The notes: generated by a model not told the origin, from the sequence alone. Shown: positions 9,601 through 39,639, counted from the first letter of the stretch. The stretch is 64,000 nucleotides of DNA from an uncultured Clostridia bacterium (GCA_944372095.1 CALVYG010000003.1:21347-85346); one strand, 5' to 3'. Made by a program: numbers and translations.

Positions 9601-12600
9601 TTTTGCTCTCAAAGTTCGCGGCCATTACGCTAAGTGTATACTTTCCGGCATTTTTCCCCGTTGTAGTAAGCGTAAATTTTTTGCCGTCGTCGGAAAACGT
9701 ACCGCTCATTCCCTTGAAGGACACATTCTTGGCGTCACTGTTATAGAATCCGGAATAAACGAGTTCAAGCGTCTGCAATGTGCCGTCATACACATATTCC
9801 TTTTCTTCTATTTGAGGTTCGGACAAAGGCTTTTTAGCTATGCTCACCACCTGAGAAATACCGCTAAATTCATAGTTGTTGAGCGTTTCGTTGATGTTTA
9901 TCAAGCCTTCACCCACGGAAAGCGTATAAATGCCCGCGTCCGTTATGTCGAAACGGATATTGAAATTTCCGTACATGTCCTTTGAAATGCTTATCTCATC
10001 TGCACCCGAAGGATTATTGAAGCTCGTTTTATCGAAATGCTCATAATCGGTCCCCGCAATATTGGTAATGTTTAGGCTTACTCTTTGAGATTCGCCGTTA
10101 TATATAAGACCATCGGTACCGCTAAATGAGGCCGACAACCCTCTTTTCTTAATATTCCATTTGAATATTCGATCGTTATCCTCTGAATTAAGTTTATAGT
10201 TGTCGCTATTGACGCCGGTTATCGATGCCTCATATGAACCTGCGTTTCTTGCCTCACCGTCGCCACTGTAAGTAAAAACAATTTTGCCCGTATCCTCAGA
10301 CACTACTCCGGTAACCGTCGCCGAAACTTTGTGTTTCGCGGAGTCATAAGTTACAGAATCTTTATCGTCTCCGTCCAGCGTCCACGACTCAACGTCTAAC
10401 GTCTTCGGTACAATTTTCCACTCGTGCGACAACCTGGTACATTCGTCTATCGAATAGTTGGTGTTACCGATACCTGTTAGCGTTGTGGTGTATGTGCCTG
10501 CGTTTTTGCATACGCTATTGTCGCTTCCGGTGGTTTTGTACATCGGTTTAATCTCATCGTCCGACACAACACCGTCATATGTCATAAATACATAATGCGC
10601 TTTGCCTGTATACTCGACCTCTGAATTTGTTTCGCTGCCCTCTGTCTGCCAGCTTCCCCGCCAATTAAAGCTTGTCAGATATTTGGGGATTATTATAAAT
10701 TCGGCTTCTTCGGTAACGGTTTCATAGTTTTTTACGTCTTTGACAGACTTTTTCTTGTATTCAGCGGTAAGCTTATATTCCCCAGCGAATATAACACCAA
10801 CCCCTTGCGCGCCCATCGCCCCCTCGGAGAGTACCTCTCCGTCTTCTTTCTTGAAAACGAGATTGACAACAATATCATCTGGAATATCAAGCGCGTCTAT
10901 GCTCTGTCTTGAACCGTTATACTCCCGATTGTATTTTTCCGAAACGGAAGAATTTCCTTTTTCCAAAGCCTTCTTGCTTATTTCCACTTTAAGTAGGTCT
11001 GTCGCCTCCGAACGCTCTCCCGTGGGCGCAACGGCGATTACGGTAAGCGTGTACAACCCTGCCTCCGGAACATTTTGCACCTTTATTGACCCGGTCTCAG
11101 CCTCAAGCTCTCCATCGCGCTCCCACCTGTATAAAAAATTTACGGATGCATCGTGAGCCGGGATCGCCTTGAGCGTAAGAATTCGTTCTTCATCATATGT
11201 GAAACGTATCCCTTGGTCTCCCGAATCATAATTGTCGTCTGTGAATTCGGTAGCTATGCTCGCTTCGGGAAGGTTCAACTGCCACTTCGCAGTCAGCGAA
11301 AGATCCTCGCTGATGTCTTCCGTAGTCGCTATCTCCTCATCATCGTCAAACCACTTTACACCCGCATCGAAACCATATCTTATCGATTCAGCTTTGGGAA
11401 GTTCTATCGTTTCACCATCCGCCCAATACAGACGCTCGGCAGCAGACTCGGGAACATATGTTCCCCAATCGAGTTCTACGGTATATTCTTCAGCCCATTT
11501 TGCATAAAGTGAAGTAGACCGAGTGAATGTAAGTTTTTCGCTTTCCGAAAACTTGCACTCTCTAAGGAAATCGGAATCGTAATACCATCCGCGAAAAGCA
11601 TATCCGTCTTTTGCTCCGTCGGTCGCCACTTCGCGGTTATTCTTGATATACGCAAGAGTGTCTACGGAAATCGGCGTGCCTGTATTGTTTTCCCCGACGA
11701 GATCTTCGTACCCAAGAGTTACCTCAGTGCCTGTTTTTGCAATGATGCTCTCAATATAATAATCACTGTCGGTAAAGAAATCGATACAGAATTCACTTTC
11801 TTCGAGAATGGGACTGAAATTTTTGGCGTATTCCGGATTCTCCTTGCGGTATTTGTTGTATATATTCTTATCTACCTGAACGGAAACATCGGTATTCAGC
11901 CCTTCCAAAGAGTCTATTCGTCCCACGTTTTCTCCACTAAGAATGATCGTCTCTAGGGAAGCGGCGTCAAAACAATTTGCCGAAAACGCCGCCTTGCTGG
12001 AATACTTTATTGTTGTCAGCGCACTTCCGGAAACGGCACCCTTTCCTATGGACTCCACACTTTCAGGAAGTTCCAATGCCGTAATTTGATTGTTTACTAT
12101 GGCACCGCTTTCAATATAACGCAGTTCGCTGACTATCTTTTCCGTGCCGTCATCCGATTTTTTTTGTATGCCGAATGTAATGCTGTCTATCTTATTTATA
12201 GTGAATATCTCATCGTCCGTAAACGCCCCTGACGCTATGCCTATAACGGGTTTATTGTTATATTCGGACGGAATGTTCACTTGGGTGGAGGTGCCATTAT
12301 AAACGCCCGTTACGATATATGCACTGCCATCTTCGTTAAGTTCGTATTTGAGCGCACGCGTATCGGAAAAAATATCGTATACTTTGGGCGGTGCTTTATA
12401 CGCAAGCAACGCCAGAACTTGGCACGCAATTATGCACACGGCCATTATAGCATACGCCCTGATATATGCTTGTGAGGTGCTTTTTCGCTTCTCCGGACTT
12501 ATCCTGACCTCCTGCCTGACGAACGCATTAAGCGATTTGCGTTCGAGAACGGGAATTATTATGTATACTATCAACGAAACTATAAGCTGTATCACAGCTA

Positions 12601-12967
12601 TTATCATAAGATCCGTTCTCAAAAATCCCTCGTCCACATAACATAGCGCCATTGCAACAAGTATGGCAATTACCCATCCCGCTCCCGCTACATATGCCAG
12701 AATACTCATCACTCTCGCGTAGATTCCCGCAAATATGCGCAGCATAAAGTCCAATACACATACGCATATCTGTAATGCGTTAATTCCGATTATCACATAC
12801 ACCGCTATAAGAAAATAATCGGGACTACCTTTTCTCTGTATCAAAAACAGCGTCGTGAGCGATCCCGCTAAAATCACAATGAACCCAAGTAAAGTCAACA
12901 GATATCTCGCAAATACGATGTTCTTGTGTTCTTTAAGTATTATCGACGTTTTATTTGCTTCACTCAT
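6608..12967 (-). CDS. Giant (2119 aa) surface protein: 5-TM N-terminal anchor, BspA-type LRRs, Listeria-Bacteroides (Flg_new-like) repeats, and about 17 or more MBG/YDG-type repeats
   Basis: ATG 12967 with GGAGAAG upstream. Five N-terminal hydrophobic helices. YAFRGWYYDSDF...LYAKW matches the Flg_new pattern. Many ~80-aa units of the form 'Y(D/N)G..h...v......y....n.naG.Y......gn.NY.l' match the MBG-type pattern. Confidence 0.9.
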   Translation of the reverse strand: MSEANKTSIILKEHKNIVFARYLLTLLGFIVILAGSLTTLFLIQRKGSPDYFLIAVYVIIGINALQICVCVLDFMLRIFAGIYARVMSILAYVAGAGWVIAILVAMALCYVDEGFLRTDLMIIAVIQLIVSLIVYIIIPVLERKSLNAFVRQEVRISPEKRKSTSQAYIRAYAIMAVCIIACQVLALLAYKAPPKVYDIFSDTRALKYELNEDGSAYIVTGVYNGTSTQVNIPSEYNNKPVIGIASGAFTDDEIFTINKIDSITFGIQKKSDDGTEKIVSELRYIESGAIVNNQITALELPESVESIGKGAVSGSALTTIKYSSKAAFSANCFDAASLETIILSGENVGRIDSLEGLNTDVSVQVDKNIYNKYRKENPEYAKNFSPILEESEFCIDFFTDSDYYIESIIAKTGTEVTLGYEDLVGENNTGTPISVDTLAYIKNNREVATDGAKDGYAFRGWYYDSDFLRECKFSESEKLTFTRSTSLYAKWAEEYTVELDWGTYVPESAAERLYWADGETIELPKAESIRYGFDAGVKWFDDDEEIATTEDISEDLSLTAKWQLNLPEASIATEFTDDNYDSGDQGIRFTYDEERILTLKAIPAHDASVNFLYRWERDGELEAETGSIKVQNVPEAGLYTLTVIAVAPTGERSEATDLLKVEISKKALEKGNSSVSEKYNREYNGSRQSIDALDIPDDIVVNLVFKKEDGEVLSEGAMGAQGVGVIFAGEYKLTAEYKKKSVKDVKNYETVTEEAEFIIIPKYLTSFNWRGSWQTEGSETNSEVEYTGKAHYVFMTYDGVVSDDEIKPMYKTTGSDNSVCKNAGTYTTTLTGIGNTNYSIDECTRLSHEWKIVPKTLDVESWTLDGDDKDSVTYDSAKHKVSATVTGVVSEDTGKIVFTYSGDGEARNAGSYEASITGVNSDNYKLNSEDNDRIFKWNIKKRGLSASFSGTDGLIYNGESQRVSLNITNIAGTDYEHFDKTSFNNPSGADEISISKDMYGNFNIRFDITDAGIYTLSVGEGLININETLNNYEFSGISQVVSIAKKPLSEPQIEEKEYVYDGTLQTLELVYSGFYNSDAKNVSFKGMSGTFSDDGKKFTLTTTGKNAGKYTLSVMAANFESKNYSISDYDAEFTIEERQLVLNDYGYNSISLSKQTYFTYNGVAAKAYAVFGNVAAADASEKNIRIEFDNENGEIKNAGTYSLSLTLNLLQTQLGENISNYKFAGQTYSFTIEPKSVTPSWNFEAVYTGNADNEFVYTGDEIAAPTASFGNQICDGDTITIEYSGNEAKTNVGKYTTSISSLGNDNYKLDNNAEYEWKIIHKQLTLKWNAVQPYVYDGNNNGQSLTVEGILGDDEVGLKVVGTGSYSTEIRVKKEDNKRTIAPFSNAGSYSLKVDSVDSGNYSLPQDNLEISYEIQKAELTLSGWTWSNEKDFTGDNTKEGFESLVYRYSTYKLQNEISDDLGKSKDVILNYEENEKTNVGDYTAKITGLSGDDADNFKLPDEGLTKEWKIIPKVIDVKWTGGNQFTFNAETISVEASCFTGAESDKDGRTYDDGVSLKYSGNSYRNAGEYTANASVDDPSGNYTLNTDTTSHNWSISVCELGAPVWDKKTFTYNGTSLYPTAKFNIHGDVDVTVAYEYISSNAVDVGEKKIRVTGIGGEDAANYTLSDEAKTEYTYEITPLAVKIEWYYIKDGGNKASIDNLTDYDGKAATISAEVKNVIGTDVFSFTYEGVTNVTNAGSYSIKLTALGNDNYTTDGGENITLNFEIRKRILEFKWENSGDKEYVVSGYTLSATASNLADGDAVSSITYNGENSFTAVGTYTVSIANVTFSDSSDANNYELDNAIGRSETIKIVPRPVSIEWTNTEAEYDGKAHKPTVTVKGTDSVMIGTDEYTVTGPEAINAGSYEFELTLGDNSNYTLTDATGNTKCTLTIVPRPVSIEWTNTEAEYDGKAHKPTVTVKGTDSVMIGTDEYTVTGPEAINAGSYEFELTLGDNSNYTLTGATGNTKCTLNISRCSVAAVWWNDAESSSFTGNITDNGYEVAVEVGNLDLSAYTVLYKKEGEEQFLELVDGNALSEAGVYELKIELNDNYAHNYNLSNATVMLTLITSAESEVTDEE
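6933..7409 (-). repeat. Near-perfect 240-bp-period tandem duplication inside the 2119-aa gene (one 80-aa MBG-type unit duplicated)
   Basis: 6933-7169 and 7173-7409 are identical apart from one base (6960 c vs 7200 t), which gives TLTGATGN vs TLTDATGN in the protein. Both copies encode IVPRPVSIEWTNTEAEYDGKAHKPTVTVKGTDSVMIGTDEYTVTGPEAINAGSYEFELTLGDNSNYTL. Confidence 0.97.
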
Positions 12968-12997: not shown

Positions 12998-14743
12998 TTA
13001 CTTTTCCAAAGTTTCTTCAGTCATAATATCACGCGACTGCATCTTTTTGAGATTCCCGAGTGCCGTGACTCTGTATTGGGTAATCCTGTGTCCCTTCCCC
13101 TTTCTCTGCCGCAAAAAAACCGTGCCGTCTATTCTCGTGACCATATGTCGCTTGCCACTGTCTATTTCGTGACAGGTCGCACACACGAATCCGAGATCGG
13201 TATCCGTCCCCGCGTCGCCGCTACCGCGATAGTACTCTCCGCCGCATATACTGCATTTGACGCATTTGTCTGCGTTGGCTATCAGCAGGTCGTCTCCGGA
13301 TAAACTGTATTTTGCTGCAACGTTTCTTTTGAACTTGGCAAGTATTGTTTTGGCTTCGGCGGTAGTCAATTCTTCTTCGCTCTTCCCGAGTGTGTCGTGA
13401 CAATATTTTCCGCGGAAACCCTCAAATTCCTCATAACCTGCTATCTTTTCGTACGCATAATTGACTATTGCCATCTGCTTCAGCGGAATGACGCTCCTGC
13501 AAACACCTTCCGAATCCACTCTGCCCATGTCGTATACCCATTCGATGGCTTCGCGACAACGGCAATAGTTAATCCCCCCCTCCAAAGAAGCGTTCGTCAA
13601 AGTTCTGATAAACTCTCTGCCGGGCGCAAGTTTTACGTTGCGGTAAGGATCCATCAGCACCCCTACTTTGTCGGCTAACACTTTTTTATAATTGTAATGC
13701 CACTCTCCGCATACCGGACAACATTCAAGACACTCAGCACACCCGGTAAGATGCACAAGACGCCCCTTATCACTCATAGTTTCGTACAATGCATCCTTAT
13801 TGATATGTATTTTGTTGACGGCTCCGCCAATGGATACTAACGCGCTGTCACATGTATTACATTCAAACGCGCTTCTGCTGAGATTGTCGCTGCCACGGCT
13901 CATGCCGGCAAAATATTGAGTCCGGAAAATACCCTCCGACTTGCCGTTGCCTACCCTCACAAGAATGTCCTGTGCGCGTAGGCGAATTTCGAAAATCGAT
14001 TTGATGGATATTCTCTGTATATCCGTTTCCGATTCGTGATATGCGTTAAACACGGCTTTTCTGATTAGATCGGAATTCAGTTTGAGGTTTTCTCGCGCTT
14101 CACCCGTAAGCAGGCTTATCGTACCTCCTTCCAATCCGTCCACTATCTCGTTCGGAACAACTTTTACAGCCCCGTCCGTCAACATAAAACTGAATGTCTC
14201 AGAAGTCGCAGATACTCCCGTATCCTTTATAAGATAGCATTTGAATACGCTGACTCGCTTCATATTGTCGGGCGTAGACTCGAAACTTATATCCTCTTCA
14301 ATGGGAAGATTTTCTCCGGCAACAGGACGATTGTACTTGTATCCTATGATGTCATCAATATTATCTACAATTTTCTTTCTGTCTATCTGTATAGCCTCGT
14401 CGTCGGACCGAAGCAGATATGTTACATGCTCATAAACTTTGTTTATTAGCGTTGCAGAAGACCTTGGGTCGATTACGGCATACTGTTTGTTTATGCTTTC
14501 GTAAAACAAGGGACTAATCCCGGATCCTATCCCAATATCCACTCCGCTTTCGTCCGATTCATAGTTATCACCAGACGAACCGGGATCGTACGGTTCGTTA
14601 ATGACTATATAGTTGTCGCCGTCAATACAAATGCTCTCAGCGTCCCCGTATCTTTTTTTGAACTCGACAACTTCGTTTTTCAGCGTGGACTCAAAATCAC
14701 CGCCAAATGTAAATTTTAATTGTCTTGCTATATCTGTCAGCAC
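12998..14743 (-). CDS. Cys-rich (multi zinc-ribbon-like) hypothetical protein
   Basis: The track ORF starts at TTG 14749, only 2 nt after GGAGGA. GTG 14743 has better spacing. CxxC-type clusters: CNTCDS, CAECLECCPVCGEWH, CRCRE, CVKCSICGGEYY...CATCHE. Confidence 0.7.
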   Translation of the reverse strand: MLTDIARQLKFTFGGDFESTLKNEVVEFKKRYGDAESICIDGDNYIVINEPYDPGSSGDNYESDESGVDIGIGSGISPLFYESINKQYAVIDPRSSATLINKVYEHVTYLLRSDDEAIQIDRKKIVDNIDDIIGYKYNRPVAGENLPIEEDISFESTPDNMKRVSVFKCYLIKDTGVSATSETFSFMLTDGAVKVVPNEIVDGLEGGTISLLTGEARENLKLNSDLIRKAVFNAYHESETDIQRISIKSIFEIRLRAQDILVRVGNGKSEGIFRTQYFAGMSRGSDNLSRSAFECNTCDSALVSIGGAVNKIHINKDALYETMSDKGRLVHLTGCAECLECCPVCGEWHYNYKKVLADKVGVLMDPYRNVKLAPGREFIRTLTNASLEGGINYCRCREAIEWVYDMGRVDSEGVCRSVIPLKQMAIVNYAYEKIAGYEEFEGFRGKYCHDTLGKSEEELTTAEAKTILAKFKRNVAAKYSLSGDDLLIANADKCVKCSICGGEYYRGSGDAGTDTDLGFVCATCHEIDSGKRHMVTRIDGTVFLRQRKGKGHRITQYRVTALGNLKKMQSRDIMTEETLEK

Positions 14744-14767
14744 AACCAATTCCTCCGTTGAGATACT

Positions 14768-17368
14768 TTATTCATTTATACTTCCGAATCCGACGTCATC
14801 GGCAGACATCATATTTTCCGTTACGTTGAAGAAATCCCCGAACGCCTTGATGAAAACGTCATACATTGCACACCTGATTCCCTCGATTTTGTCGTATTCT
14901 ACGCGAAACATCTCCTTTGCTGCAACCGCTTCCTCGCTTTTTATCGATGCAATAATCGATTTTGCTGCGCGTTCGCTTTTGTTTATCGTCGCTTTTGTCT
15001 CCAACATACTCTTTTCAAAAACCTCATCCGCACTCGCAGAGTGAATACTCCTGCCCGCAGATCGGTTTTCAACAAGTTTTCGATATTCCTCGACGTATTC
15101 ATTTATTGCAGAATAAAAATTGTTAACACCCCTGAAAAACTGCCTTGGATTATTGACTTTGAGCTTTTCATACTTCGGACAATCCGCACAGTTAGCCGGC
15201 GGCGGACACATCCCGCGCAAGTATTTTATGCACGCTCCGAAAAATACATATCGGCTATCCCCGGAACGCGCGCCTACAGGTATAACTTTCCTGAATCCCG
15301 ATTTCCCTATCGGCGGCGGATCTATATTCTCCACAGAATCGCCACCCTCCTCTATGGTAACACTGCTCCCAATCACCATCCCGAAGCATTTTCCGATATG
15401 TTTCATCTGCGAAAGCCTGAATTTTGCTTCGGGAGAGAAAAAGACATTTTGCGTGTTGATTCCGGATAACTCGTTCGTGAAAGCAGCGGCAACATCTTCC
15501 TCCGACAGAGAGTTCTCCACTGCCATGCGCGTCGCTATATACACCGCTTCGAGTTTTTTGACGCGCGAAGCATATTCCCCGCTCATATTCTCGCTTTTGT
15601 CCGTAACCTCGCTTAAGTCACAGCTTTTATTGATATACTTTTCGGAAATATTGCCACTAAGATCGTCTCGCATCGCCATAAGTATTATTCTCGGAGCGAA
15701 ACGCATACTCTTGGCTTTATCCATAAGCCCCGCAAAAAATCTGTCCGCAGGGTGCAGATCCGCAAAATATATCGCGCGTACAGCGTAATCGTAAGGCGTT
15801 GCCGCAAAATGAGGTATATCTGTTACGGCTACTACCGCGCCGTCGGATAATGAATCGCCCATAATCTCGTCCACACTGTCCATATATCGATAGCCGAATT
15901 TCTCCGAAAGTTTTCTGATCGACGTCACGGCCTCATCCATCGCCTCACGTGAAACGACTATAATAAACGGTTTTCTTCCCCCTTTCTCCGCAGAAATCGC
16001 TTTGAACACCGCGAGATATTTATTAAACCTGCAATCGTTTTGCTCTACGGACGTAAATACGGTTTCGTTATCCCTTTTCGGAACGGAGCCATGACGCTTA
16101 TCGAGAATGTATCCGAAAAAAGAGTCGAGCCTCTTCACCCTCACAACTTCAAAGTCCGTTGCAGATAGCGGATACGCTATACCGCCGAACGATTCCACAA
16201 GCTCCGCTATCTCTTCCGCTTTATGCGCCTCAACGGCGCGCACTTCCGTTTTATCGGATAAAAGCACATTATACACTAAACGCGCAAAATTTCTTCCTCC
16301 GTCCGTAATAAAGTCAAGCATATTGTCGAACCAGTAATCCTCCGACAATGCCGTACCGCGCATTTTGACATATGCTCTTACCGTTTGAAGAAACAACTCT
16401 CGCTGCGTCATAAACCCGAACATATCCGAAATGCGCTTAGCCAAAGCACCGACGTCGCTGAAGCGTGAACCCGCAAAACTCATTACGTAATCCGCAATGC
16501 CTTCGTTTTCGAGTGCGGTATTTAAAGTGTATTGCAGAACATCGGAATTCTGCGCTGTGAGAATATCCGCTATTTTCTTTGCTAACTTGTTTAATCCCAA
16601 ATTGTCCGTCAGTTTCTTTGCCACATATAAATTAACGCCCGCACCCGCCGTAAGACAATCGCTGTATACCACTACTCTACCCGCAGAATCGGCTATTTTT
16701 GCCAGTCGCTTATAGGACCTAATCCGCGGTGTATAGTATACTTCACTGTTAAAAAACATGACGTCATACTCAAACGGATCTATTGTGTCGACGGAGTGCT
16801 TTCCGGTATTTTTGCATTTTTTGAGTTCAAATAATCCATATACTTCGTCCATATACACGAAATCGTATTCGGCGTCCGCCATCAAATCGGCTAACGCATA
16901 TTGAAGCCTTCTATCTGAATATCTCCTTATACTTCCGTCGAGGCTGACGTCCGCAAAAAATTCCTTGTTCAAAATCGGCGTCCCCGAATAATCCTCCAAC
17001 GCGATTATAAGATACGGATAATTCTTTTTTATAATCTTAGCAATAAAATTTTTGTCAATGCCCGCACAGTCGTTTATGTTTACTATACCCGCGCCTTCAA
17101 ATAAACTGTCCATCTTTTGTACGGTATCCACGACAAAAATTTTTCCGAAACAATGTTCCAAACACGTAGCAAGCTCCGCTGCGGTAACAGTCTCGGGCGT
17201 AATGGCAAGAAACGACTCCGTCTTGTTTTCGGTAAAATATGATATTAGCGCCGAAACCACCCTGTGCTTTGCAGAATCGGCAATAAACAATCTCTCGGAG
17301 TCGGCCAGCTTTTCAATGTATTTGCCGACTTTTTCCCCCTCTGCCGCCATACCGTTTACCATCATCAT
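14768..17368 (-). CDS. Large (866 aa) hypothetical partner of the SNF2 helicase; C-terminal Cys-knuckle plus helical module paralogous to the SNF2 C-terminus
   Basis: ATGATGATG follows GGAGGA and overlaps the SNF2 stop (ATGA, 17365-17368); the exact start (17368, 17365 or 17362) is ambiguous. I saw no GxxGxGK(T/S). CPPPANCADCPKYEK...NNFYSAINEY resembles the SNF2 tail DCSDARDCNKCPNYSQ...NSYSEFTKAA. Confidence 0.7.
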   Translation of the reverse strand: MMMVNGMAAEGEKVGKYIEKLADSERLFIADSAKHRVVSALISYFTENKTESFLAITPETVTAAELATCLEHCFGKIFVVDTVQKMDSLFEGAGIVNINDCAGIDKNFIAKIIKKNYPYLIIALEDYSGTPILNKEFFADVSLDGSIRRYSDRRLQYALADLMADAEYDFVYMDEVYGLFELKKCKNTGKHSVDTIDPFEYDVMFFNSEVYYTPRIRSYKRLAKIADSAGRVVVYSDCLTAGAGVNLYVAKKLTDNLGLNKLAKKIADILTAQNSDVLQYTLNTALENEGIADYVMSFAGSRFSDVGALAKRISDMFGFMTQRELFLQTVRAYVKMRGTALSEDYWFDNMLDFITDGGRNFARLVYNVLLSDKTEVRAVEAHKAEEIAELVESFGGIAYPLSATDFEVVRVKRLDSFFGYILDKRHGSVPKRDNETVFTSVEQNDCRFNKYLAVFKAISAEKGGRKPFIIVVSREAMDEAVTSIRKLSEKFGYRYMDSVDEIMGDSLSDGAVVAVTDIPHFAATPYDYAVRAIYFADLHPADRFFAGLMDKAKSMRFAPRIILMAMRDDLSGNISEKYINKSCDLSEVTDKSENMSGEYASRVKKLEAVYIATRMAVENSLSEEDVAAAFTNELSGINTQNVFFSPEAKFRLSQMKHIGKCFGMVIGSSVTIEEGGDSVENIDPPPIGKSGFRKVIPVGARSGDSRYVFFGACIKYLRGMCPPPANCADCPKYEKLKVNNPRQFFRGVNNFYSAINEYVEEYRKLVENRSAGRSIHSASADEVFEKSMLETKATINKSERAAKSIIASIKSEEAVAAKEMFRVEYDKIEGIRCAMYDVFIKAFGDFFNVTENMMSADDVGFGSINE

Positions 17369-21280: not shown

Positions 21281-22429
21281 TTATCGTGTTTTATTTTTTA
21301 TGAAGCCCGCACGCAAACTGCCTACATACAATTCGCCATTAAAGAGACTCACCTTATTGCTGGTCATTTCAAGGACGAAACTGCGTTCAGTAACCTCGCG
21401 CATCCTGTCTTTGTAGCGCCTTATAATTTCCGCTCTCGCATCGGTGATCTTGACGTAACGCAACTGTCTTTCGTTATCCTCCAATATAAGGTTAAAGTGT
21501 GCGTTTTCGTTAAACAGTTCGCCGTCCGACTGAGACTTAATCTCGGAAACGGGATAGGTATAGCACACCTTTTCCGAACCCGTATGCGATTTATAATATA
21601 CGTACAATACGTTATTAAAAGACTGTATCGTCGTTATATCGAAACCAACCTTAAAGCCAAATCGACACACACTCCCGGGATTCCCTAAACGCAATTTACA
21701 AACCCGGTTTTCGGATACCCAAAGTATATCGCCGCCGTCTGAAACTATAAGCGGTTCTCTGACAAACTCTCCGTTTTCGATATTAAATTCACCATTTCCT
21801 ATCATAACCGTTTCTATGCGGCGTTTGTCGGGTACAAAACGATAATACCCGAGTTTCTCGTCATGAATAACAAATATATTTGAACCTATACATGATACGA
21901 AACTGCTTGTCGCATACGTAGACGGGAGTTCGACGGCGGCCATGGGTTTAAGCTTTATCTTCCCCGCAATGTCTATTAAATAAACGGTAAGGTTGCACTT
22001 GTCTTTCTCCGAGGCGATTGCCACAAGATAGTACCCGACGCCTGTCTCCTGCGGAAGACATATGATACCCCATGCCCTAACGGTTTCTCCGGGATACAAC
22101 ACGCGATTGGCGTCATAGATAATATATCCGTTCGCATCCAACGCGAACACGGCACCGTTTAACCAAAGTTCGGGCAGACCTTCTTCGGACATGCGACGAC
22201 TGTAAACGTACCTGACGTCTCCGGGTCCTATGACGCAGTTATTCCCTATGTCGCCGTTTGTAAGCAGCCGGAACTTGCAATCAACAAGGGTATTTTTCCG
22301 ATCCACATATTGCTTCCAATCGTTAAACTCACCCACTATCTCCTGTCCGTATGCAGAAGAACGCACGCTAAGTTTCGACGTATAGAACAGCTTTTCTTTT
22401 TTAGTTGCTTTATAAAAGCATTTCAGCAT
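21281..22429 (-). CDS. Hypothetical beta-rich protein (382 aa), possibly propeller-like
   Basis: ATG 22429 with GGAGAGAGGA upstream. Gaps of 14 and 22 bp to its neighbours. I recognised no catalytic motif. Confidence 0.6.
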   Translation of the reverse strand: MLKCFYKATKKEKLFYTSKLSVRSSAYGQEIVGEFNDWKQYVDRKNTLVDCKFRLLTNGDIGNNCVIGPGDVRYVYSRRMSEEGLPELWLNGAVFALDANGYIIYDANRVLYPGETVRAWGIICLPQETGVGYYLVAIASEKDKCNLTVYLIDIAGKIKLKPMAAVELPSTYATSSFVSCIGSNIFVIHDEKLGYYRFVPDKRRIETVMIGNGEFNIENGEFVREPLIVSDGGDILWVSENRVCKLRLGNPGSVCRFGFKVGFDITTIQSFNNVLYVYYKSHTGSEKVCYTYPVSEIKSQSDGELFNENAHFNLILEDNERQLRYVKITDARAEIIRRYKDRMREVTERSFVLEMTSNKVSLFNGELYVGSLRAGFIKNKTR

Positions 22430-22443: not shown

Positions 22444-24978
22444 TCAGCCCCTCGTAATCATGATGTTTTCTCCGTAACGATCTTCATTTCTGAGTCCCCT
22501 GTTGTTTAGAAGAATTGTATATATATCCTGCTCGCTCCCCTCGGCAAATCTGCGCTTATAGTCGCACAGATCTTCTTTTGTAAAATAACTTGCCAACGGC
22601 GATTCCTTGCCGTTCAAGTCGAGCCTTTCTATTATAAACTGTTCCAATCGCCTGTTTATCGGTGCGTCTTTAAGCATTTCCAATGACATATATCCTTTAC
22701 TGTCAGTGGGTTTCATGATCTCGGCATAGCCGTAGCGATGCTCAATACAATATCTTTTCAATTCATCGTATTTATCTATGTTTAGATGATAAGCCGCAGT
22801 ACGGAAGTTTTTCATCTCTATTATGACAATTCTTCCTTTGTAGTCTTTCACAACAAAATCGGGATAATACTTGTGGTTTGCAAGCCTAGCAGAGACGTAT
22901 TCGAGCTCTGCGCTCTGTGCCTTAATGTCCGACAAAAATCCCGTTTTCGCCATAAGAGACGCAAACCTGCTCTCAAGAAAAGAGTCGCATTCAAGGGTTC
23001 TTATTTTGCCCGCGATGTCTACCTCGAGCGTGCAACGATGCTTTGTTGTCTCATCGTATTCTTTTTCTATGTCCGGAAACAGTTCGTCAAGATCCGCTTC
23101 GGGAACAATCTTTACGTTCTCGGGATATGTAATGAGCGACTCAATAAGACGGCACTTTTCCGAATCGGGAATCCGTGAAGCCACAATGCTGCGTTTTTCC
23201 CATCTTTGGTTGTTTTCTCCGCGAAGTCCTGCTTCCTCGGCGTTTTTTCCGTTAAGTTCGGCGTCCTCAAAATATTCACCCAAATTCTCTTCGAAATCAT
23301 CGTTATCGTACTCCGCATTGCCTAAGTCATTTAAGGTGTCTCCGGCGTCCTGTATATTCGTGTAATTTGTGCTTTCGGCATCTTTTTGTTGCATCGGCAA
23401 AGCATCGCTCGGGTCGGAGCTCTCAATTCCTCCTTCGTTGATAAAGTAATTATTTTTTTTTCCTGTCGAAATATTCGGATTGTCGCCGTCGCATGAAACG
23501 GGCGAATTTTTATCATCTTTAGCTGAATCTCCTAAGTCCTTTTTCTTGGCGGGGGGCGTCAATCCAAGCACTTCATATGCCTTTGGCATGGCTATGCGAC
23601 CCTGTGCCTGAATCATTAACAAGCCTTTTTTAATGAGATAAGCTTCATACTTTTGTTTGAGTACGTTATTGCTCTCGTTCATTGCTCTGGCGAGCGTATC
23701 GATACTGACGGGACCGCCGCCATACCTCTTGACGATAATGCCGAGCAATTGTCTGTCTCCCTCTTCAAGTCCGTACTTGTCTATACGGCTGCTCTTGAAG
23801 TATTCCTCAATAATGTCCGACGTAATTCTTATGTTACACTTGCGAATTTGTTCAACACTGTTGAAATGCCCCTGTAAGCGGATACCGTTTCTTTCGGCAT
23901 ACCTCACAAGCGCGTTACTGGATATCATGTTCACCATGTTGTTGGCAATCCTGGGATTATTTCTGCAACGCTTGGCTATACTCAAAGCGTCGGTGTCGTA
24001 TATACTCATGCCGCCGCGGTAAAATGATTTGGCGATAATTTGCGCAATCACATTGTCGTTGTATTCTTTAAGGCGCACAAGTATAGTGCGTTGAGTCAAC
24101 GGACCCGCAAGTTCTCCAAGCTCCGTTGTCGCACCGATGAGCGTAAAGGGCGGCAATTCTATCGTTTCTGTCCTTGCGAGTTTTCCTTTGCCCTCAGTAT
24201 ATGTAATGCAATGATCCTGCAACGCCGAATACAATAGCGACTCCGCAATTTCTTTGGGTAGCGTATGTATCTCGTCAATAAAAACTATATCTTTCGCTTT
24301 GAGAGATTTCAGCATGGCAAGCATACTGTTCATGTTTATGCCGTTTACATTGATTTCTTTGAGGCTCATCCCCATTTCATTGGCGATGATTCTCGCAAAC
24401 GTCGTTTTTCCTAAACCGTGCGACCCGTATAAAATCAAATGCGGCAATACCGTGTCCTTTAATTTGGCGGCGTTTATCAGCGTAGAAACACAGTTTACGG
24501 CATCGGATTGCCCGACATATTCCGATAACCATTGCGGCGCCATAGCGTTAAGTCTGCGGTTTTTCGGTCCATGCGATTGTTCCTTCTTTAACGGGTCTAC
24601 AATATCTATGGGTCTAAGCGACTTTCCGGTATCTTTTTGTGGCGTTTCTCTTCCATCTGCGTTGAACGATTTGTCAGATTTTTGAAAAAGCTCGTCAACC
24701 GTTTGATATTGCTTATCGGGTGCGCTATCCGCATCTCCTTTTTTTTCTTTTGCCGAATCGGCTTTAATTTTAGACTGAGCTTCATCGGCAAGCGACAGAC
24801 ACGAATTGTAGTAGCGCATATACTTTGCTCTGACTTCCCCGCCGGACAGGCTCGCTATGACCAACGCTATCTCGCATGCTTTTAGAAAGCATTTTCGCGC
24901 CCCGGCGTAATCGCCGTCGCGCATTTTTTCCTCCGCCTCGGTAAGAGATGATACTATTTGGCGTTCTTTATCCTGCAT
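22444..24978 (-). CDS. Fusion protein: N-terminal MIT-like domain + RuvB-like AAA+ ATPase with winged helix + C-terminal PD-(D/E)xK (TnsA-N/restriction-endonuclease-like) nuclease domain
   Basis: MIT-like: EAEEKMRDGDYAGARKCFLKACEIALVIASLSGGEVRAKYMRYYNSCLSLADEAQSKI. RuvB-like: HLILYGSHGLGKTTFARIIANEMG, IVFIDEIHTL, LPPFTLIGATTELGELAGPL, NPRIANNMVNMI, GLEEGDRQLLGIIVKRYGGGPVSIDTLARAM...YEAYLIKKGLL. Nuclease: YYPDFVVKDYKGRIVIIEMK (nt 22810-22869). Confidence 0.85.
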   Translation of the reverse strand: MQDKERQIVSSLTEAEEKMRDGDYAGARKCFLKACEIALVIASLSGGEVRAKYMRYYNSCLSLADEAQSKIKADSAKEKKGDADSAPDKQYQTVDELFQKSDKSFNADGRETPQKDTGKSLRPIDIVDPLKKEQSHGPKNRRLNAMAPQWLSEYVGQSDAVNCVSTLINAAKLKDTVLPHLILYGSHGLGKTTFARIIANEMGMSLKEINVNGINMNSMLAMLKSLKAKDIVFIDEIHTLPKEIAESLLYSALQDHCITYTEGKGKLARTETIELPPFTLIGATTELGELAGPLTQRTILVRLKEYNDNVIAQIIAKSFYRGGMSIYDTDALSIAKRCRNNPRIANNMVNMISSNALVRYAERNGIRLQGHFNSVEQIRKCNIRITSDIIEEYFKSSRIDKYGLEEGDRQLLGIIVKRYGGGPVSIDTLARAMNESNNVLKQKYEAYLIKKGLLMIQAQGRIAMPKAYEVLGLTPPAKKKDLGDSAKDDKNSPVSCDGDNPNISTGKKNNYFINEGGIESSDPSDALPMQQKDAESTNYTNIQDAGDTLNDLGNAEYDNDDFEENLGEYFEDAELNGKNAEEAGLRGENNQRWEKRSIVASRIPDSEKCRLIESLITYPENVKIVPEADLDELFPDIEKEYDETTKHRCTLEVDIAGKIRTLECDSFLESRFASLMAKTGFLSDIKAQSAELEYVSARLANHKYYPDFVVKDYKGRIVIIEMKNFRTAAYHLNIDKYDELKRYCIEHRYGYAEIMKPTDSKGYMSLEMLKDAPINRRLEQFIIERLDLNGKESPLASYFTKEDLCDYKRRFAEGSEQDIYTILLNNRGLRNEDRYGENIMITRG

Positions 24979-25655: not shown

Positions 25656-26825
25656 TTATGACTGATTGTCGGTTAAGCTTTGAACAAGCTCTTCCACAGT
25701 CGGCAGATCACATATTTTGAGCGTGGATAAAACGTTTTTATCGTTCAATTCTCTTACGGAAAGTTGTCCAAGCCTGATGTTCTGCCTTGCCATCATTTTC
25801 TCGAAAAGCATTCTGACATCCCTCGCGTTACCAAAGTATTTTCCCCTTGCGCTCTTAAGTTCCGCAAGACGATCGGTAATTGCCGTTCGGACAACCTCGG
25901 GGTCTTCCTCGAAAACAAATTTCTGTTTTTTGCAGAGTTTTATCAGAATGTTGTACATTTCTTTCGGGGCGTAATCTTCAAATTCAATCGTCCAATTAAA
26001 GCGGGAAGCAAAACCTACATTCGACTTCATGGCGGCATCCATTTCATCTGAATAACCTGCAAGTATCACCACAAAATCAGCACGGTTGTTTTCGACCGCG
26101 GTAAGCAAAACGTCTATTGCCTCCTTTCCGAAATCGCTTCCCGAATCAGCTTTATAAAGAGTATAAAACTCGTCGACAAACAATACTCCGCCTAAGGCCG
26201 AATCCACAACTTCCTGCGTCTGCTGAGCCGTATGCCCCACATACTTCCCTACTAGACCGACCCTTGCGTTTACTTCCACAAGGTGGCCTTTGCTAAGTAA
26301 CCCGAGCGCACTGAAAATATCACCCATAATTCTTGCAACGGTAGTTTTTCCTGTCCCGGGATTGCCCTTAAAAATCATGTGATTGGAAGAAGCATATATC
26401 GGAAGTCCCTGTTCTTCTCTAAACTTGTTTATGCGGATTTGCTGTATAATCTGCATAACCCTGTTTTTCACGTTATGAAGACCCTCGAGCGAATTAAGCT
26501 CTTCCAGCGCGCTTTCCAGCGAAGGCGCGGGTTTTGAGGACGAATCATCTGCTTTGGCATTGTTTTGTCCGCCTGTTTTCGCGCCGGCACAAGGGGTGGA
26601 CTTAACCACTTTACCGCCGACTTTATCTATCATATTCTTGATAGACATGGCTTGCTCGACATATGCCTGTCGCTCGCTTCCCGAAGACTGTTCCGCCAAA
26701 ACAACGGCGCTTTTCAGAGCGCGTTGCAAAAAAATCATTGCTTGATTATAATTATTTTGTTCAAGATATTTCAGCGCAGTCTCACGATTGGTGCGATATT
26801 CCTTCTTCAATTCTTCATTCGGCAT
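25656..26825 (-). CDS. MIT-like domain + AAA+ ATPase (SpoVK/CbbX/EccA-type core); Vps4-like architecture
   Basis: GGAGGG SD. N-terminus ALKYLEQNNYNQAMIFLQRALKSAVVLAEQSSGSERQAYVEQAMSIKNMIDKV has the MIT pattern, followed by a low-complexity linker. Then MIFKGNPGTGKTTVARIMG (Walker A), GGVLFVDEFYTL (Walker B), VVILAGY and GFASRF. Confidence 0.8.
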   Translation of the reverse strand: MPNEELKKEYRTNRETALKYLEQNNYNQAMIFLQRALKSAVVLAEQSSGSERQAYVEQAMSIKNMIDKVGGKVVKSTPCAGAKTGGQNNAKADDSSSKPAPSLESALEELNSLEGLHNVKNRVMQIIQQIRINKFREEQGLPIYASSNHMIFKGNPGTGKTTVARIMGDIFSALGLLSKGHLVEVNARVGLVGKYVGHTAQQTQEVVDSALGGVLFVDEFYTLYKADSGSDFGKEAIDVLLTAVENNRADFVVILAGYSDEMDAAMKSNVGFASRFNWTIEFEDYAPKEMYNILIKLCKKQKFVFEEDPEVVRTAITDRLAELKSARGKYFGNARDVRMLFEKMMARQNIRLGQLSVRELNDKNVLSTLKICDLPTVEELVQSLTDNQS

Positions 26826-28172: not shown

Positions 28173-29075
28173 CTAATTGTCGTTCCTTATCGCCTGTTTG
28201 AAAGAAGAACGGGATTCCTCTTTTTCTTCGACTTCGAAATTTCTGAACGCCTTATTTAGTTCATTGTCTTTTTCCGCATTTATAGCATTCTTGAACGAAG
28301 ACTGTGTCTCCGAACGATTCCTGGAATCGGACGCAGAATATATATTCTTTTCATTATCATCAATAAGCTCCGTTTTTTCGATAAATGTAGCTTTTTTGAT
28401 ATTGAGTTCTTCCACACGCTTAGCAAAAACCTCCGGACTTGTTACCATTGAGCCATCTATTCTTTCCAAAGCATCCATCTGCCCGTCCAAAGAAATTGCC
28501 GCAAGGTTAGCGTTGTACGCTTTTACGGAAAGTAAAACGATTTCTTTTAAATTTTTAACTTGTTTGTCATATTTGTTATATTGCGTTTCGATTCTTACAA
28601 ATTCTGCACTACCTTCGGCCAAATCTTTACCTTTGAGCATTAACTCTCGCATTAAAGCTTCGAGTTCGGCTTGTTTGTTGAGATTGTCATCGATTTCTCC
28701 GACAAGAGTGGCTTGCTTGCGCTTTATTTGAATCTGCTCGTCCGTGTACAGCTCGGAGCCATGCTTGCGCGAATCATAGACAGCCTCCTTTAGCATCTCG
28801 GCACATTGGGCAAACTCTGCATCTTTCCCCGCCCTACAAAGATTGCTCATATCTCCAATAAGTTCGGAAATGCGCTTATCAATAGCTGCTTGCTTTTTGG
28901 GATTGGCATTTTTGGGACAATTCACTTTGTCCAAAAGACGAAGTATGACATTAAGATACTTTATCGTCCCATAGTTATGTTTTTCGTGCATTTCTGCAAT
29001 AAAATCGTTAACGCTTGCTTTGAATTCTATCGTATTTTTTTTGAATTTTTTTTCATAACCGAAAAGTGGTAACAT
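28173..29075 (-). CDS. Coiled-coil protein (300 aa), possibly a fourth, divergent PspA/ESCRT-III-like subunit or adaptor
   Basis: AGGAGAAA SD. Long heptad-like central region (aa ~100-230). The C-terminal tail carries a duplicated motif, SSFKNAINAEKDN / SSFKQAIRNDN. Confidence 0.6.
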   Translation of the reverse strand: MLPLFGYEKKFKKNTIEFKASVNDFIAEMHEKHNYGTIKYLNVILRLLDKVNCPKNANPKKQAAIDKRISELIGDMSNLCRAGKDAEFAQCAEMLKEAVYDSRKHGSELYTDEQIQIKRKQATLVGEIDDNLNKQAELEALMRELMLKGKDLAEGSAEFVRIETQYNKYDKQVKNLKEIVLLSVKAYNANLAAISLDGQMDALERIDGSMVTSPEVFAKRVEELNIKKATFIEKTELIDDNEKNIYSASDSRNRSETQSSFKNAINAEKDNELNKAFRNFEVEEKEESRSSFKQAIRNDN

Positions 29076-30165: not shown

Positions 30166-30194
30166 ATTATATCAACACGCGCGTTTTTTGTCAA
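30166..30194 (-). promoter_or_regulatory. Consensus sigma-A-type promoter in front of the 15-gene array
   Basis: Minus strand reads TTGACA (30194-30189), then 17 nt, then TATAAT (30171-30166). It lies about 95 nt upstream of the GTG at 30071. Confidence 0.65.
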
Positions 30195-33559: not shown

Positions 33560-35137
33560 TTAAATTCCGCTTTGCCCGTAGTTTGAAAGTACTCGTGCCG
33601 ACGGGTCGTTTACATTACATCCTTCCCATTCTTTATTCGGCATCCAGAAATCTTTAATCATTTCGCCGTTATCGGGATAGTATTTTTCAAACAGTTCCCT
33701 ATATAAAAGCGATTCTTTTGTAAATGGCGTTGCGTGCGTATATTTCTTTCTCTTTTCTTCAAATTCTTTGTTCGTGTAAAGTTTTTCCGCATGGTCCTTG
33801 ATATGGTTTACCAACGAATGTCCGACCGCATCGCTGAATGCGGCTTTTTCTCTGAATAATATGTTCTCGGGTAAATAATCTCCCTCAAAAGCTTTTCTCA
33901 ATAAATATTTTCCTTTTCCGTACACGTTCATTTTCTTTTCCGGATTTATGCTGAGCACATACGAAACAAAATCCAAATCTCCGAAAGGTACGCGCGCTTC
34001 CATTGAATTTACGCTTATGCATCTGTCTGCACGCAGAACGTCGTACATATAAAGTTCTTTTACCCTTTTTACGGATTCTTTTTGGAATTCTTCTGCGTCA
34101 GGAGCAAAATCAGTGTATTTATACCCGAATAGTTCGTCGCTTATCTCACCGGTAAGTAAAACTCTTATATCGGTTTTTTCCCTTATTGCCTTACATAACA
34201 AGTACATTCCGACGCTGGCTCTAACGGTTGTTATGTCGTATGTTCCCAGCATATACACCACTTCTTCCAACGACCCGATTACGTCTTCTTTTGTTATAAT
34301 AACTTCGGTATGCTCGCTTTTTATGTAATCTGCGACTTCTTTTGCATACTTCAAATCAATTGCATCCTCTTTCATTCCGATTGCAAAAGTCCTTATAGGT
34401 TTTTTTAACAGCTTCGACGCCACCGCACATACAAGCGAACTGTCCAGCCCCCCCGAAAGCAAAAATCCTATCGGAGCATCTGCGTCAAGTCTTTTTTCTA
34501 TTCCTTTTATAAGCTTGTCTTTTATTTTTCCGCATATTTCTTCAAGCGTTCCGTCTTGATACTTTTTTACTTCCGTTATATTGCGGTATTGTATAAACTT
34601 TCCTTCGCTGTAATAGTATCCCGGAGGAAAAGGATATATTTTTTTACATATACCCGTAAGATTCTTTGCTTCGCTTGCAAAGATTATTCCTGCCGGCGTA
34701 TAACCGTAAAATAAAGGCCGTATCCCTATCGGGTCTCTCGCTGCTAAAAAACTCCTTTTTTCGCCGTCGTATATTATAAGAGCATATTCGGCATCGAGCA
34801 TACCGAACATTTCCGTTCCGTATTTCTCATACATCGGCAATAATATTTCCGAATCGCTCTCACTTTCAAACACAACGCCTTCATCTTCGAGTCCTTGTTT
34901 TATCTTTCTGAACCCGTAAACTTCTCCGTTACAGACAATATAATTTTTTCCTCGTCTGAACGGTTGCATTCCTTTCTCGTCAAGCCCCATTATAGACAGT
35001 CTGTGAAATGCCAATATGCCTTCTCCTACATCAATTATTCTTGACATATCAGGTCCGCGGGACACGGTTTTCATAAACCCTTCTTCAAATATCTCCGCAG
35101 GTACTCCGTACCCTTCCATTCCCATTATCGAACACAT
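33560..35137 (-). CDS. asnB: Asparagine synthase (glutamine-hydrolysing)
   Basis: N-terminal MCS... (Cys2 Ntn nucleophile). PP-loop motif FLLSGGLDSSLVCAVA. Length 525 aa. AAAGGAGAG SD. Confidence 0.9.
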   Translation of the reverse strand: MCSIMGMEGYGVPAEIFEEGFMKTVSRGPDMSRIIDVGEGILAFHRLSIMGLDEKGMQPFRRGKNYIVCNGEVYGFRKIKQGLEDEGVVFESESDSEILLPMYEKYGTEMFGMLDAEYALIIYDGEKRSFLAARDPIGIRPLFYGYTPAGIIFASEAKNLTGICKKIYPFPPGYYYSEGKFIQYRNITEVKKYQDGTLEEICGKIKDKLIKGIEKRLDADAPIGFLLSGGLDSSLVCAVASKLLKKPIRTFAIGMKEDAIDLKYAKEVADYIKSEHTEVIITKEDVIGSLEEVVYMLGTYDITTVRASVGMYLLCKAIREKTDIRVLLTGEISDELFGYKYTDFAPDAEEFQKESVKRVKELYMYDVLRADRCISVNSMEARVPFGDLDFVSYVLSINPEKKMNVYGKGKYLLRKAFEGDYLPENILFREKAAFSDAVGHSLVNHIKDHAEKLYTNKEFEEKRKKYTHATPFTKESLLYRELFEKYYPDNGEMIKDFWMPNKEWEGCNVNDPSARVLSNYGQSGI

Positions 35138-35216
35138 TCCGCAATGCTCTCCTTTTTGCGTTTTACTTTCGAAACTCCGTTGTCAAAACCTTTTTGTTTC
35201 TTTCCCCAATCATTTC

Positions 35217-35250
35217 GTCCGCCTGTTTGGTATTGTCAAAACAGGCGGAC
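35217..35250. other. Strong intergenic stem-loop between amt-PII and asnB (possible terminator or processing site)
   Basis: GTCCGCCTGTTT-10 nt-AAACAGGCGGAC (12-bp stem). The T-rich tract (CGTTTTCGTTTT) is on the plus strand only, so its role for the minus-strand operon is unclear. Confidence 0.35.
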
Positions 35251-35274
35251 CGTTTTCGTTTTAATATATTCTTC

Positions 35275-37038: not shown

Positions 37039-37077
37039 TTTTTTAATCCTCCTTTTATTTCTTAACGTTGGTTCATT

Positions 37078-39165: not shown

Positions 39166-39202
39166 TTTTCTTTTCTCCTTTCATTGCTTTTATTTTGCAA
39201 AC

Positions 39203-39243: not shown

Positions 39244-39256
39244 GTTATTTGCCCAC

Positions 39257-39556: not shown

Positions 39557-39562
39557 AAACGG

Positions 39563-39619: not shown

Positions 39620-39639
39620 ATTTTGTTGGAGATACGCTT

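Follow-up and report, generated by a model that had tools for sequence, protein, structure and literature searches.

A RuvB-like motor and a TnsA-like nuclease fused to a predicted MIT-fold domain in an ESCRT-III operon of gut Clostridia

A 64,000-nucleotide stretch of DNA from an uncultured Clostridia bacterium (GCA_944372095.1, CALVYG010000003.1:21347-85346; hereafter the window) encodes an 844-residue fusion protein that combines an N-terminal domain of predicted MIT fold, a RuvB-type AAA+ motor, and a C-terminal nuclease resembling TnsA. Its gene belongs to an operon that also encodes predicted ESCRT-III proteins and a second AAA+ ATPase with a homologous N-terminal domain. We propose that the fusion processes DNA as the effector of a bacterial machine akin to ESCRT-III/Vps4, acting as translocase and nuclease while tethered to an ESCRT-III polymer, and we put the probability of this reading at roughly 0.65.

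Apart from PspA/Vipp1, bacteria are without identifiable ESCRT homologues according to a survey from 2024 (PMC10936438), and a review from 2025 states that a Vps4-like ATPase appears to be absent from them and flags links between ESCRT-III and DNA as an open question (PMC7619361). MIT domains are described in PMC9477494 as binding the C-terminal tails of polymerised ESCRT-III subunits and thereby recruiting cofactors. An initial annotation of the window made from the DNA alone (the sequence-only reading) had described the protein as an MIT, RuvB-like, and PD-(D/E)xK fusion that docks onto an ESCRT-III-like polymer. We have analyzed its three modules, its neighbours, and its relatives in other genomes.

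Three modules in one protein

Among 5.8 billion proteins searched, we found about 90 clusters of full-length relatives with lengths of 700-850 aa, nearly all from metagenomes, the few named ones being labelled 'AAA family ATPase [Clostridia bacterium]'. Because these ~90 clusters from independent assemblies have the same architecture, the fusion is genuine and recurrent, and an assembly chimera is ruled out as its origin. The neighbours of the homologues were recorded and form a conserved operon. An alignment of 34 members contains three conserved blocks, namely the N-terminal ~75 residues, the RuvB core, and the C-terminal ~245 residues, which are separated by two variable linkers. Each of the three domain calls made in the sequence-only reading is upheld by a sequence profile or a structure. 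Its linker lengths were too generous: the segment before the motor comprises about 60 residues (80-138) instead of ~90, and the acidic region after it about 120 (477-597) instead of ~170.

The AlphaFold model of the N-terminus has a predicted local distance difference test score (pLDDT) of 90 and consists of three helices spanning residues 2-20, 24-44, and 47-79. When this model was submitted to Foldseek, the majority of the top 30 matches were MIT domains (VPS4A/B, MITD1, NRBF2, a Sulfolobus Vps4-like ATPase, and katanin p60), with TM-scores of 0.5-0.8 (0.7-0.8 for the foremost matches), root-mean-square deviations of 1.2-3.8 Å, probabilities of ~1.0, and E-values of 0.05-0.4. A family profile of the N-terminus gave weak whole-domain matches, all sub-significant, to the chitin synthase MIT domain 2mpk (E = 0.027) and to those of VPS4B and VPS4A (E = 0.17-0.6), and it also matched TPR consensus proteins through a 21-residue motif. 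No useful match was obtained when the lone N- and C-terminal sequences were compared with PDB sequences, and an 80-residue MIT profile found no significant match among the 5.8 billion proteins. On the basis of the predicted three-helix fold and its mostly MIT-domain neighbours in the PDB, which bear out the earlier call of an MIT-like N-terminus, we accept this region as a domain of predicted MIT fold that formally lies outside the Pfam MIT family.

The central motor is recognized by all three RuvB families of Pfam: RuvB_N at residues 147-298 (E = 1.9e-41), AAA_lid_4 at 306-356 (E = 7.3e-5), and RuvB_C at 401-471 (E = 1.8e-15). Walker A K191, Walker B D235/E236, sensor-1 T284/T285, R297, and R343 are invariant in the 34 members; on the basis of an alignment with E. 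coli RuvB, which also guided the naming of the motifs, we take R297 to be the predicted arginine finger and R343 the predicted sensor-2 residue. These matches and residues agree with the Walker motifs and the winged helix noticed at the outset.

With all three RuvB domains and the catalytic residues intact, and with archaeal Hjc resolvases as the next structural neighbours of the nuclease after TnsA, the fusion could be a housekeeping RuvB with extra domains, which works with a distant RuvA and has a TnsA/Hjc-like domain as its built-in Holliday-junction resolvase. We consider this very unlikely, and reject it because of divergence, curated cut-offs, the lack of ruvA in the loci examined, rarity, and context. 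The motor core is 36% identical to each of three canonical RuvBs (from Brevibacillus, Salmonella, and the clostridial Subdoligranulum), whereas these are 60-64% identical to one another. The RuvB equivalog models of NCBI align to residues 139-475, but with scores below both cut-offs (NF000868, 275.2 vs 282; TIGR00635, 241.2 vs 299.05), and the NCBI label of the relatives is 'AAA family ATPase'. In the reference records examined, ruvA directly precedes ruvB in three out of three (annotated in two, identified by a tblastn match in one), whereas searches of the window and of 24 related loci (L001-L024) gave no RuvA or RuvC match, in agreement with the original remark that neither gene is adjacent. 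Furthermore, a strict-pattern scan of 185,579 species-representative genomes found the fusion in only 19, which are without exception assemblies of Clostridia or unclassified Firmicutes and mostly gut-labelled metagenome-assembled genomes (MAGs), and it invariably lies inside an ESCRT-III operon. In summary, the protein has the architecture and the ATPase motifs of RuvB, but neither a score above the curated cut-off nor orthologue-level identity nor linkage to ruvA, and as judged from its sequence the motor is a RuvB paralogue that has diverged deeply. The sequence-only reading had itself raised the prospect of a housekeeping ruvB with ruvA elsewhere; the sub-cut-off scores and the lack of ruvA and ruvC in the loci examined speak against it, albeit indirectly.

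On the plus strand near the end of the window, at 62932-63270, a reading frame also resembles RuvB weakly in its AAA+ sequence (30% identity over 116 aa, E = 3e-4). This frame more probably belongs to a different AAA+ gene than to a canonical ruvB; it is absent from the list of open reading frames (ORFs), perhaps because it runs off the end.

The C-terminus of the window protein matches the Pfam family Tn7_TnsA-like_N (PF08722) at residues 684-748 with E = 0.05 and 14.6 bits against a threshold of 26.5. The homologous C-termini match the same family at E ≤ 0.01 in 26 of 29 cases (best 1.7e-9), and many relatives have a precomputed PF08722 assignment. Residues E669, D707, E721, and K723 are conserved in at least 90% of the 34 members within the pattern CDSxLE...(Y/F)(F/Y)PDF...IEMKN, and the divergent member P0091 is the sole case in which the catalytic residues have been lost. 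An AlphaFold model of the C-terminal module, calculated from the homologue alignment, has a pLDDT of 93 and a predicted TM-score of 0.89. Its best Foldseek matches are the TnsA structures 1f1z and 1t0f (E = 1.3e-4 to 4.2e-4, probability 1.0), with 230-280 aligned columns that cover most of TnsA, followed by the archaeal Hjc resolvases, Cas4 (SSO0001), and the restriction enzyme BstEII. Since family profile matches, fold neighbours, and conserved residues agree, we assign the C-terminus to the TnsA-type PD-(D/E)xK nucleases, with a predicted intact active site in a module of ~247 aa that includes a helical/strand subdomain. The PD-(D/E)xK signature first picked out from the sequence alone is therefore corroborated by the fold match to TnsA and by the conserved E/D/E/K residues of the homologues.

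As TnsA is the best match of the C-terminus in both structure and Pfam, and as Tn7 pairs TnsA with the AAA+ protein TnsC, the fusion might be a component of a Tn7-like mobile element, its nuclease and an AAA+ regulator having a part in transposition. This explanation is effectively refuted by the lack of a transposase domain in the operon proteins: Pfam and NCBIfam scans of these proteins revealed no TnsB/DDE transposase, integrase, or recombinase domain, terminal repeats and attachment sites not having been searched for. In addition, the AAA+ module is of the RuvB class and not of the TnsC class, a different nuclease takes the place of the TnsA-like one in a related system (see below), and the full fusion architecture has no match among 72,556 plasmid and 50,697 phage records, where the RuvB matches are canonical only (33-37% identity).

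ESCRT-III partners and displaced domains

The gene directly upstream of the fusion encodes a 194-aa protein that matches Pfam Snf7 weakly (E = 0.0019). A profile search of 1.84 billion cluster representatives gave a family of 554 members, and a profile built from 69 sequences was used against the PDB. It matched human CHMP2A over nearly the whole core (E = 1.6e-8), CHMP3 (8.7e-4), and, more weakly, CHMP1B, Vps24, Snf7, CdvB, and Asgard ESCRT-IIIB; PspA and Vipp1 chains were not among its PDB matches. These profile comparisons identify the 194-aa protein as a genuine ESCRT-III of the Snf7 superfamily. Two further small proteins of the operon, of 204 and 216 aa, are its paralogues, a relationship that was not detected with shallow alignments and emerged once the 69-sequence profile served as reference. 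Two of the three paralogues start with a short basic hydrophobic motif (LFKSK and WVKSK), and their tails (IEKKLASLR, FDNELSELK, and LQDTIDRLN) are each similar to the MIT-interacting motif MIM1. In the family as a whole, an amphipathic tail helix of the form hydrophobic-x3-hydrophobic-x2-hydrophobic-(K/R...) occurs in 35 of 69 members, compared to a mean of 2.6 for shuffled tails. In our reading, this helix resembles the eukaryotic MIM1 motif.

The second AAA+ protein of the operon, of 389 aa, has an N-terminus homologous to the MIT-like domain of the fusion (hhalign 97%, E = 1.2e-10; local hidden Markov model (HMM) E = 3.4e-12), followed by an ATPase domain that scores best with SpoVK, CbbX, and EccA in NCBIfam. 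We regard it as a candidate bacterial functional analogue of Vps4.

The strongest evidence for a tie between the DNA enzyme and ESCRT-III comes from domain displacement in related systems, as far as can be judged by comparing them. The ESCRT-III family includes some long proteins with the ESCRT-III domain fused N-terminally to a DNA enzyme. The combinations are ESCRT-III-RuvB without a nuclease (P0197 and P0233), ESCRT-III-RuvB-TnsA-like (P0286), ESCRT-III-RuvB with a NERD nuclease (P0189; L029 10001-12403), and ESCRT-III-FtsK_alpha-FtsK/SpoIIIE (P0211, P0241, and others, among them P0244, P0279, and P0231; L028 10001-11863). The MIT domain is absent from these ESCRT-III-fused DNA enzymes. Local HMM searches of the fetched loci showed that MIT and ESCRT-III domains never occur together in a RuvB-TnsA protein, which always carries one of the two: MIT in the window and 14 further distinct loci, ESCRT-III in L004, L018, and L020-L023. 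The partner AAA+ retains its MIT domain wherever its gene falls inside the fetched locus, and a free ESCRT-III gene is present in all RuvB-TnsA loci except the short contig L023. The operon chassis is also shared: the ESCRT-III-FtsK operon of L028 contains Band-7, a 344-aa protein, further small ESCRT-III proteins, MIT-AAA+, and SNF2, and the ESCRT-III-RuvB-NERD operon of L029 contains Band-7, a 344-aa protein, ESCRT-III, MIT-AAA+, and a trypsin-like protease. Trypsin-like protease and helix-turn-helix (HTH) genes occur in variant loci. From the mutual exclusivity of MIT and ESCRT-III domains within a shared chassis, it follows that a double-stranded DNA motor, with or without a nuclease, is attached to ESCRT-III either covalently or via MIT, and from the substitution of NERD for TnsA in L029 that the nuclease module is interchangeable. 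The docking of the fusion onto an ESCRT-III-like polymer through its MIT domain, as originally suggested, thereby gains comparative support from the CHMP2A-matching neighbour with its MIM1-like tail, the MIT domain shared with the AAA+ protein, and the swaps of domains and motors.

The placement of an MIT domain ahead of an AAA+ ring is the layout of Vps4, and RuvB shares an AAA+ clade with the protein unfoldases ClpX, HslU, and Lon. The RuvB-like ring could accordingly work on protein, as a second Vps4-like unfoldase of ESCRT-III with the nuclease as an unrelated passenger. Such an activity seems highly improbable to us, given that the RuvB winged-helix domain is strongly conserved, that the module is interchangeable with FtsK, a double-stranded DNA pump, that it is linked to two nuclease families (TnsA-like and NERD), and that a classical MIT-AAA+ is already available in the operon for the unfoldase role. 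A DNA motor tethered to ESCRT-III remains our preferred reading.

The operon and its surroundings

The fusion gene is part of a same-strand array that extends from 30104 to 6608 or lower coordinates, the distances between its genes measuring -4 to 56 bp (Table 1). Its order is SPFH, 300-aa, 216-aa, 204-aa, AAA+, 194-aa, fusion, 382-aa, SNF2, 866-aa, 583-aa, and 2119-aa, with a putative promoter of perfect consensus upstream of the SPFH gene (30194-30166). About 13 loci keep this order; they come from Lachnospiraceae, Oscillospiraceae, Christensenellaceae, Eubacteriales, and one Ruminococcus bicirculans MAG. Three loci retain only the half from SPFH to the fusion, a shorter core seen in L001 and L010. 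The MAGs that have the operon include GCA_949416565.1 and GCA_037193585.1.

Table 1. Location of the fusion, its modules, and the other operon features within the window
Feature	Coordinates	Strand	Basis or remark
MIT / RuvB-like AAA+ / TnsA-like nuclease fusion, 844 aa	22444..24978	-	uninterrupted ORF, stop codon included
Predicted MIT-like three-helix bundle, residues 1-79	24742..24978	-	AlphaFold2 model, Foldseek, weak profile matches
Low-complexity linker 1, residues 80-138	24565..24741	-	length and sequence vary in family alignment
RuvB-type AAA+ motor (ATPase domain, lid, winged helix), residues 139-476	23551..24564	-	Pfam, NCBIfam, alignment
Acidic low-complexity linker 2, residues 477-597	23188..23550	-	alignment; much shorter or largely absent in most homologues
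TnsA-like module, residues 598-844	22447..23187	-	nuclease core ~649-755 and helical/strand C-terminal subdomain ~766-843
ESCRT-III (Snf7-superfamily) protein, 194 aa	25015..25599	-	start LFKSK, tail IEKKLASLR; always directly upstream of fusion
MIT-AAA+ ATPase, 389 aa, candidate Vps4 analogue	25656..26825	-	AAA and AAA_lid_6; SpoVK/CbbX/EccA class
ESCRT-III paralogue, 204 aa	26844..27458	-	hhalign 96.1%, E = 3.2e-9; local HMM E = 3.1e-13
ESCRT-III paralogue, 216 aa	27477..28127	-	hhalign 95.6%, E = 1.2e-8; local HMM E = 2.2e-11
Conserved 300-aa protein	28173..29075	-	orthologues start MGLFGYN; two F-x-x-hydrophobic-hydrophobic-x-x-x-K-N tail motifs
SPFH/Band-7 protein with C-terminal zinc ribbon, 335 aa	29097..30104	-	first operon gene; Pfam Band_7_1, Zn_Ribbon_1; syntenic in ~15 loci
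Putative sigma-70-type promoter	30166..30194	-	TTGACA, 17-nt spacer, TG-extended TATAAT, 12/12; consensus match only
Conserved 382-aa protein	21281..22429	-	14 bp downstream of fusion; synteny
SNF2-family helicase, 1297 aa	17365..21258	-	nearest families DrmD, DpdE, BrxH, far under cut-offs
Conserved 866-aa protein	14768..17368	-	synteny
Conserved 583-aa protein, predicted multi-zinc	12998..14749	-	many invariant CxxC pairs (alignment); syntenic orthologues 33-40% identical (BLAST)
Giant 2119-aa protein	6608..12967	-	~6 predicted transmembrane segments in first ~185 residues, then MBG, Flg_new, LRR_5 repeats

The 382-, 866-, 583-, and 300-aa proteins have no relatives in PDB profile searches and no matches in Pfam, NCBIfam, or PADLOC. 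Comparison of the 300-aa protein with the ESCRT-III profile gave an hhalign probability of 22%; the start of its orthologues resembles those of ESCRT-III proteins, and their pair of tail motifs could be another MIT-binding motif. The CxxC pairs of the 583-aa protein suggest several zinc sites. The SNF2 helicase is found in 14 loci, with orthologues that are 44-47% identical (40% in L016). Its similarity to DrmD amounts to 92 bits in PADLOC and to 106.6 bits in NCBIfam, where the cut-off is 610, and it matches ZorD weakly as well. Its Pfam N-terminal motifs (~65-140) and Helicase_C (883-960) are ~740 residues apart with no Pfam match between them, a gap that could reflect a large insertion or sequence divergence. 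Last in the array, the giant protein may be part of the system, as its N-terminal ~6-27%, which is what falls within the fetched loci, is syntenic at the operon end in 11 other loci.

Genes for nitrogen assimilation occupy 33560-48130: asparagine synthase, an Amt-PII fusion, type III and type I glutamine synthetases, glutamate synthase subunits, and CTP synthase. As these ordinary chromosomal genes flank it, the operon lies outside any obvious mobile element. Further on, an RmuC gene (49094-50272) adjoins two minus-strand ORFs of 2084 and 1012 aa (50292-56546 and 57505-60543), which have no Pfam match at E ≤ 1e-5.

Proposed mechanism, biological role, and relation to known systems

In the mechanism that we envisage, ESCRT-III subunits would assemble into polymers at the cytoplasmic side of the membrane, with the SPFH protein as their probable organiser, and their exposed C-terminal helices would recruit both MIT-bearing ATPases. 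The MIT-AAA+ would remodel or recycle the polymer in the manner of Vps4. The RuvB module would, by analogy with RuvB, form a ring around double-stranded DNA and pump it while the long linkers hold the module at the membrane. The pumped DNA would then be handed to the nuclease domains of the fusion itself and be cleaved, with the SNF2 helicase and other conserved operon proteins assisting.

Several observations weigh against this picture. Neither the window protein nor any of 30 family N-termini matches the Pfam MIT family (PF04212) at E ≤ 1, only short TPR-motif matches being obtained, and the Foldseek E-values of the N-terminal model (0.05-0.4) are modest, as is usual for helical bundles of 75 residues. 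The central arginine of the eukaryotic MIM1 consensus is often missing from the family tails, and the AAA+ protein in the window appears by its profile matches to be of the SpoVK/CbbX class and not a Vps4 orthologue. MIT-MIM binding, hexamer formation, DNA translocation, and cleavage by the fusion are moreover all steps that we infer.

As to what the machine does, we suggest with low confidence that its likeliest role is to destroy incoming foreign DNA at a membrane site where envelope perturbation triggers ESCRT-III assembly. Zorya is an anti-phage system with a membrane sensor and an SNF2/nuclease effector. The two systems may share the logic of a membrane complex that brings helicase and nuclease to entering DNA, although homologues of ZorA and ZorB are missing here. 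We favour a role in defence because the distribution is patchy, the effectors are swappable, the SNF2 helicase is nearest to DrmD, DpdE, BrxH, and ZorD, and protease and HTH genes occur in variants. This role has its own difficulties. No defence model of PADLOC matches the signature genes, the fusion giving only weak matches in the P-loop region and the ESCRT-III, SPFH, and other conserved proteins none or marginal ones; the flanks of the locus are ordinary nitrogen-metabolism genes and no integrase was seen in them; the system is very large, and a giant surface protein is not easily accounted for if it serves defence; and the FtsK variants together with this giant membrane protein would suit DNA export or clearance at a membrane neck equally well.

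The same machine could indeed operate at a membrane neck, such as a vesicle bud, a division or engulfment septum, or a cell-cell bridge, where the motor would pump DNA through or out and the nuclease would trim trapped DNA. The outcome would be DNA-loaded vesicles, cell-to-cell DNA transfer, or clearance of DNA before scission, as performed by FtsK/SpoIIIE at septa. That FtsK/SpoIIIE, the classic pump of septa and conjugation, takes the place of RuvB in related systems is suggestive here, all the more so since the membrane anchor of FtsK normally sits where the related fusions have their ESCRT-III domain. The nuclease is dispensable in the two ESCRT-III-RuvB variants P0197 and P0233, the operon encodes a conserved giant membrane-anchored protein with adhesin-type repeats, and the locus is embedded in chromosomal housekeeping genes. 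On the other hand, the operon has no relaxase, transposase, competence, or capsid genes, the very sparse distribution speaks against a core role in the cell cycle, and the best family matches of the SNF2 protein are defence helicases. On balance, we find action at a membrane neck possible but rather unlikely.

Comparison with known systems places the fusion between several of them. It has the three-domain AAA+ layout and the intact motifs of RuvB from the RuvAB-RuvC system, to which it adds MIT and nuclease domains and an ESCRT-III operon in place of a ruvA/ruvC neighbourhood. With Vps4/CdvC and ESCRT-III, it has in common an MIT domain on a flexible linker before an AAA+ ring and several neighbouring ESCRT-III paralogues with MIM-like tails. 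It differs from them in that its ring is a RuvB-class motor with a nuclease and not a protein unfoldase, that the separate MIT-AAA+ is of the SpoVK/CbbX class, and that the host is bacterial. In eukaryotes, MIT domains likewise bring catalytic modules to the ESCRT-III filament, as exemplified by the MIT-recruited spastin, MITD1, calpain-7, AMSH/USP8, and ULK3. To our knowledge, and according to our literature searches, no known MIT enzyme is a DNA translocase or nuclease.

The nuclease has the same E...D...ExK arrangement as Tn7 TnsA, with ~11-12% identity in the structural alignment, but it is joined to a RuvB motor and lacks TnsB, TnsC, TnsD, and any transposon context. FtsK/SpoIIIE is likewise a ring-shaped double-stranded DNA translocase at the membrane and replaces RuvB in the sister systems. 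It belongs to another ATPase superfamily, and its classical anchor is a set of transmembrane helices, whereas the proposed anchor of the fusion is a peripheral ESCRT-III polymer or an MIT adaptor, combined with a nuclease. A genetic link between the ESCRT-III superfamily and SPFH proteins is shared with PspA/LiaH and its SPFH partner YdjI; here, however, the ESCRT-III proteins are of the CHMP/Snf7 branch and are accompanied by MIT-ATPases, a DNA motor-nuclease, and SNF2. A survey of partners of the PSP system names neither RuvB nor SNF2 nor an endonuclease (PMC11237479). Archaeal ESCRT loci of the Meth_adaptin type encode a protein with SPFH, coiled-coil, and zinc-ribbon regions (PMC10936438), which the window protein with SPFH/Band-7 and zinc ribbon resembles in these two regions. 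Given this likeness, an inter-domain transfer of genes within the gut is conceivable. In the literature, we found no description of combinations of RuvB, TnsA, MIT, ESCRT, SPFH, SNF2, and FtsK, subscription-only papers lying outside the coverage of the search.

Taken more broadly, we give even odds to the view that gut Clostridia carry true Snf7-class ESCRT-III with MIT-ATPases, and that the polymer serves as a membrane landing pad for interchangeable double-stranded DNA motors (RuvB or FtsK) and nucleases (TnsA-like or NERD). The operon would then either extend the ESCRT-III/MIT partnership to bacteria or record inter-domain transfer in the gut. If our reading of the fusion is true, this would be, to the best of our knowledge, the first MIT domain to recruit a DNA translocase-nuclease. 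The broader view would amount to a principle not recognised before, namely that a filament which remodels membranes physically holds the machinery for moving and cutting DNA. That ESCRT-III has been fused repeatedly, and interchangeably, to RuvB or FtsK points to a wider connection of its filaments with DNA. Such a machine could shred DNA that gets in where the envelope is damaged, or it could load or remove DNA at membrane necks in the course of vesicle formation or of transfer between cells. Should it serve abundant gut anaerobes in defence or in DNA transfer, the system would be a new, large, and modular one, for which point mutants of K191, E669, D707, and K723 and MIT-peptide binding assays provide experimental handles.

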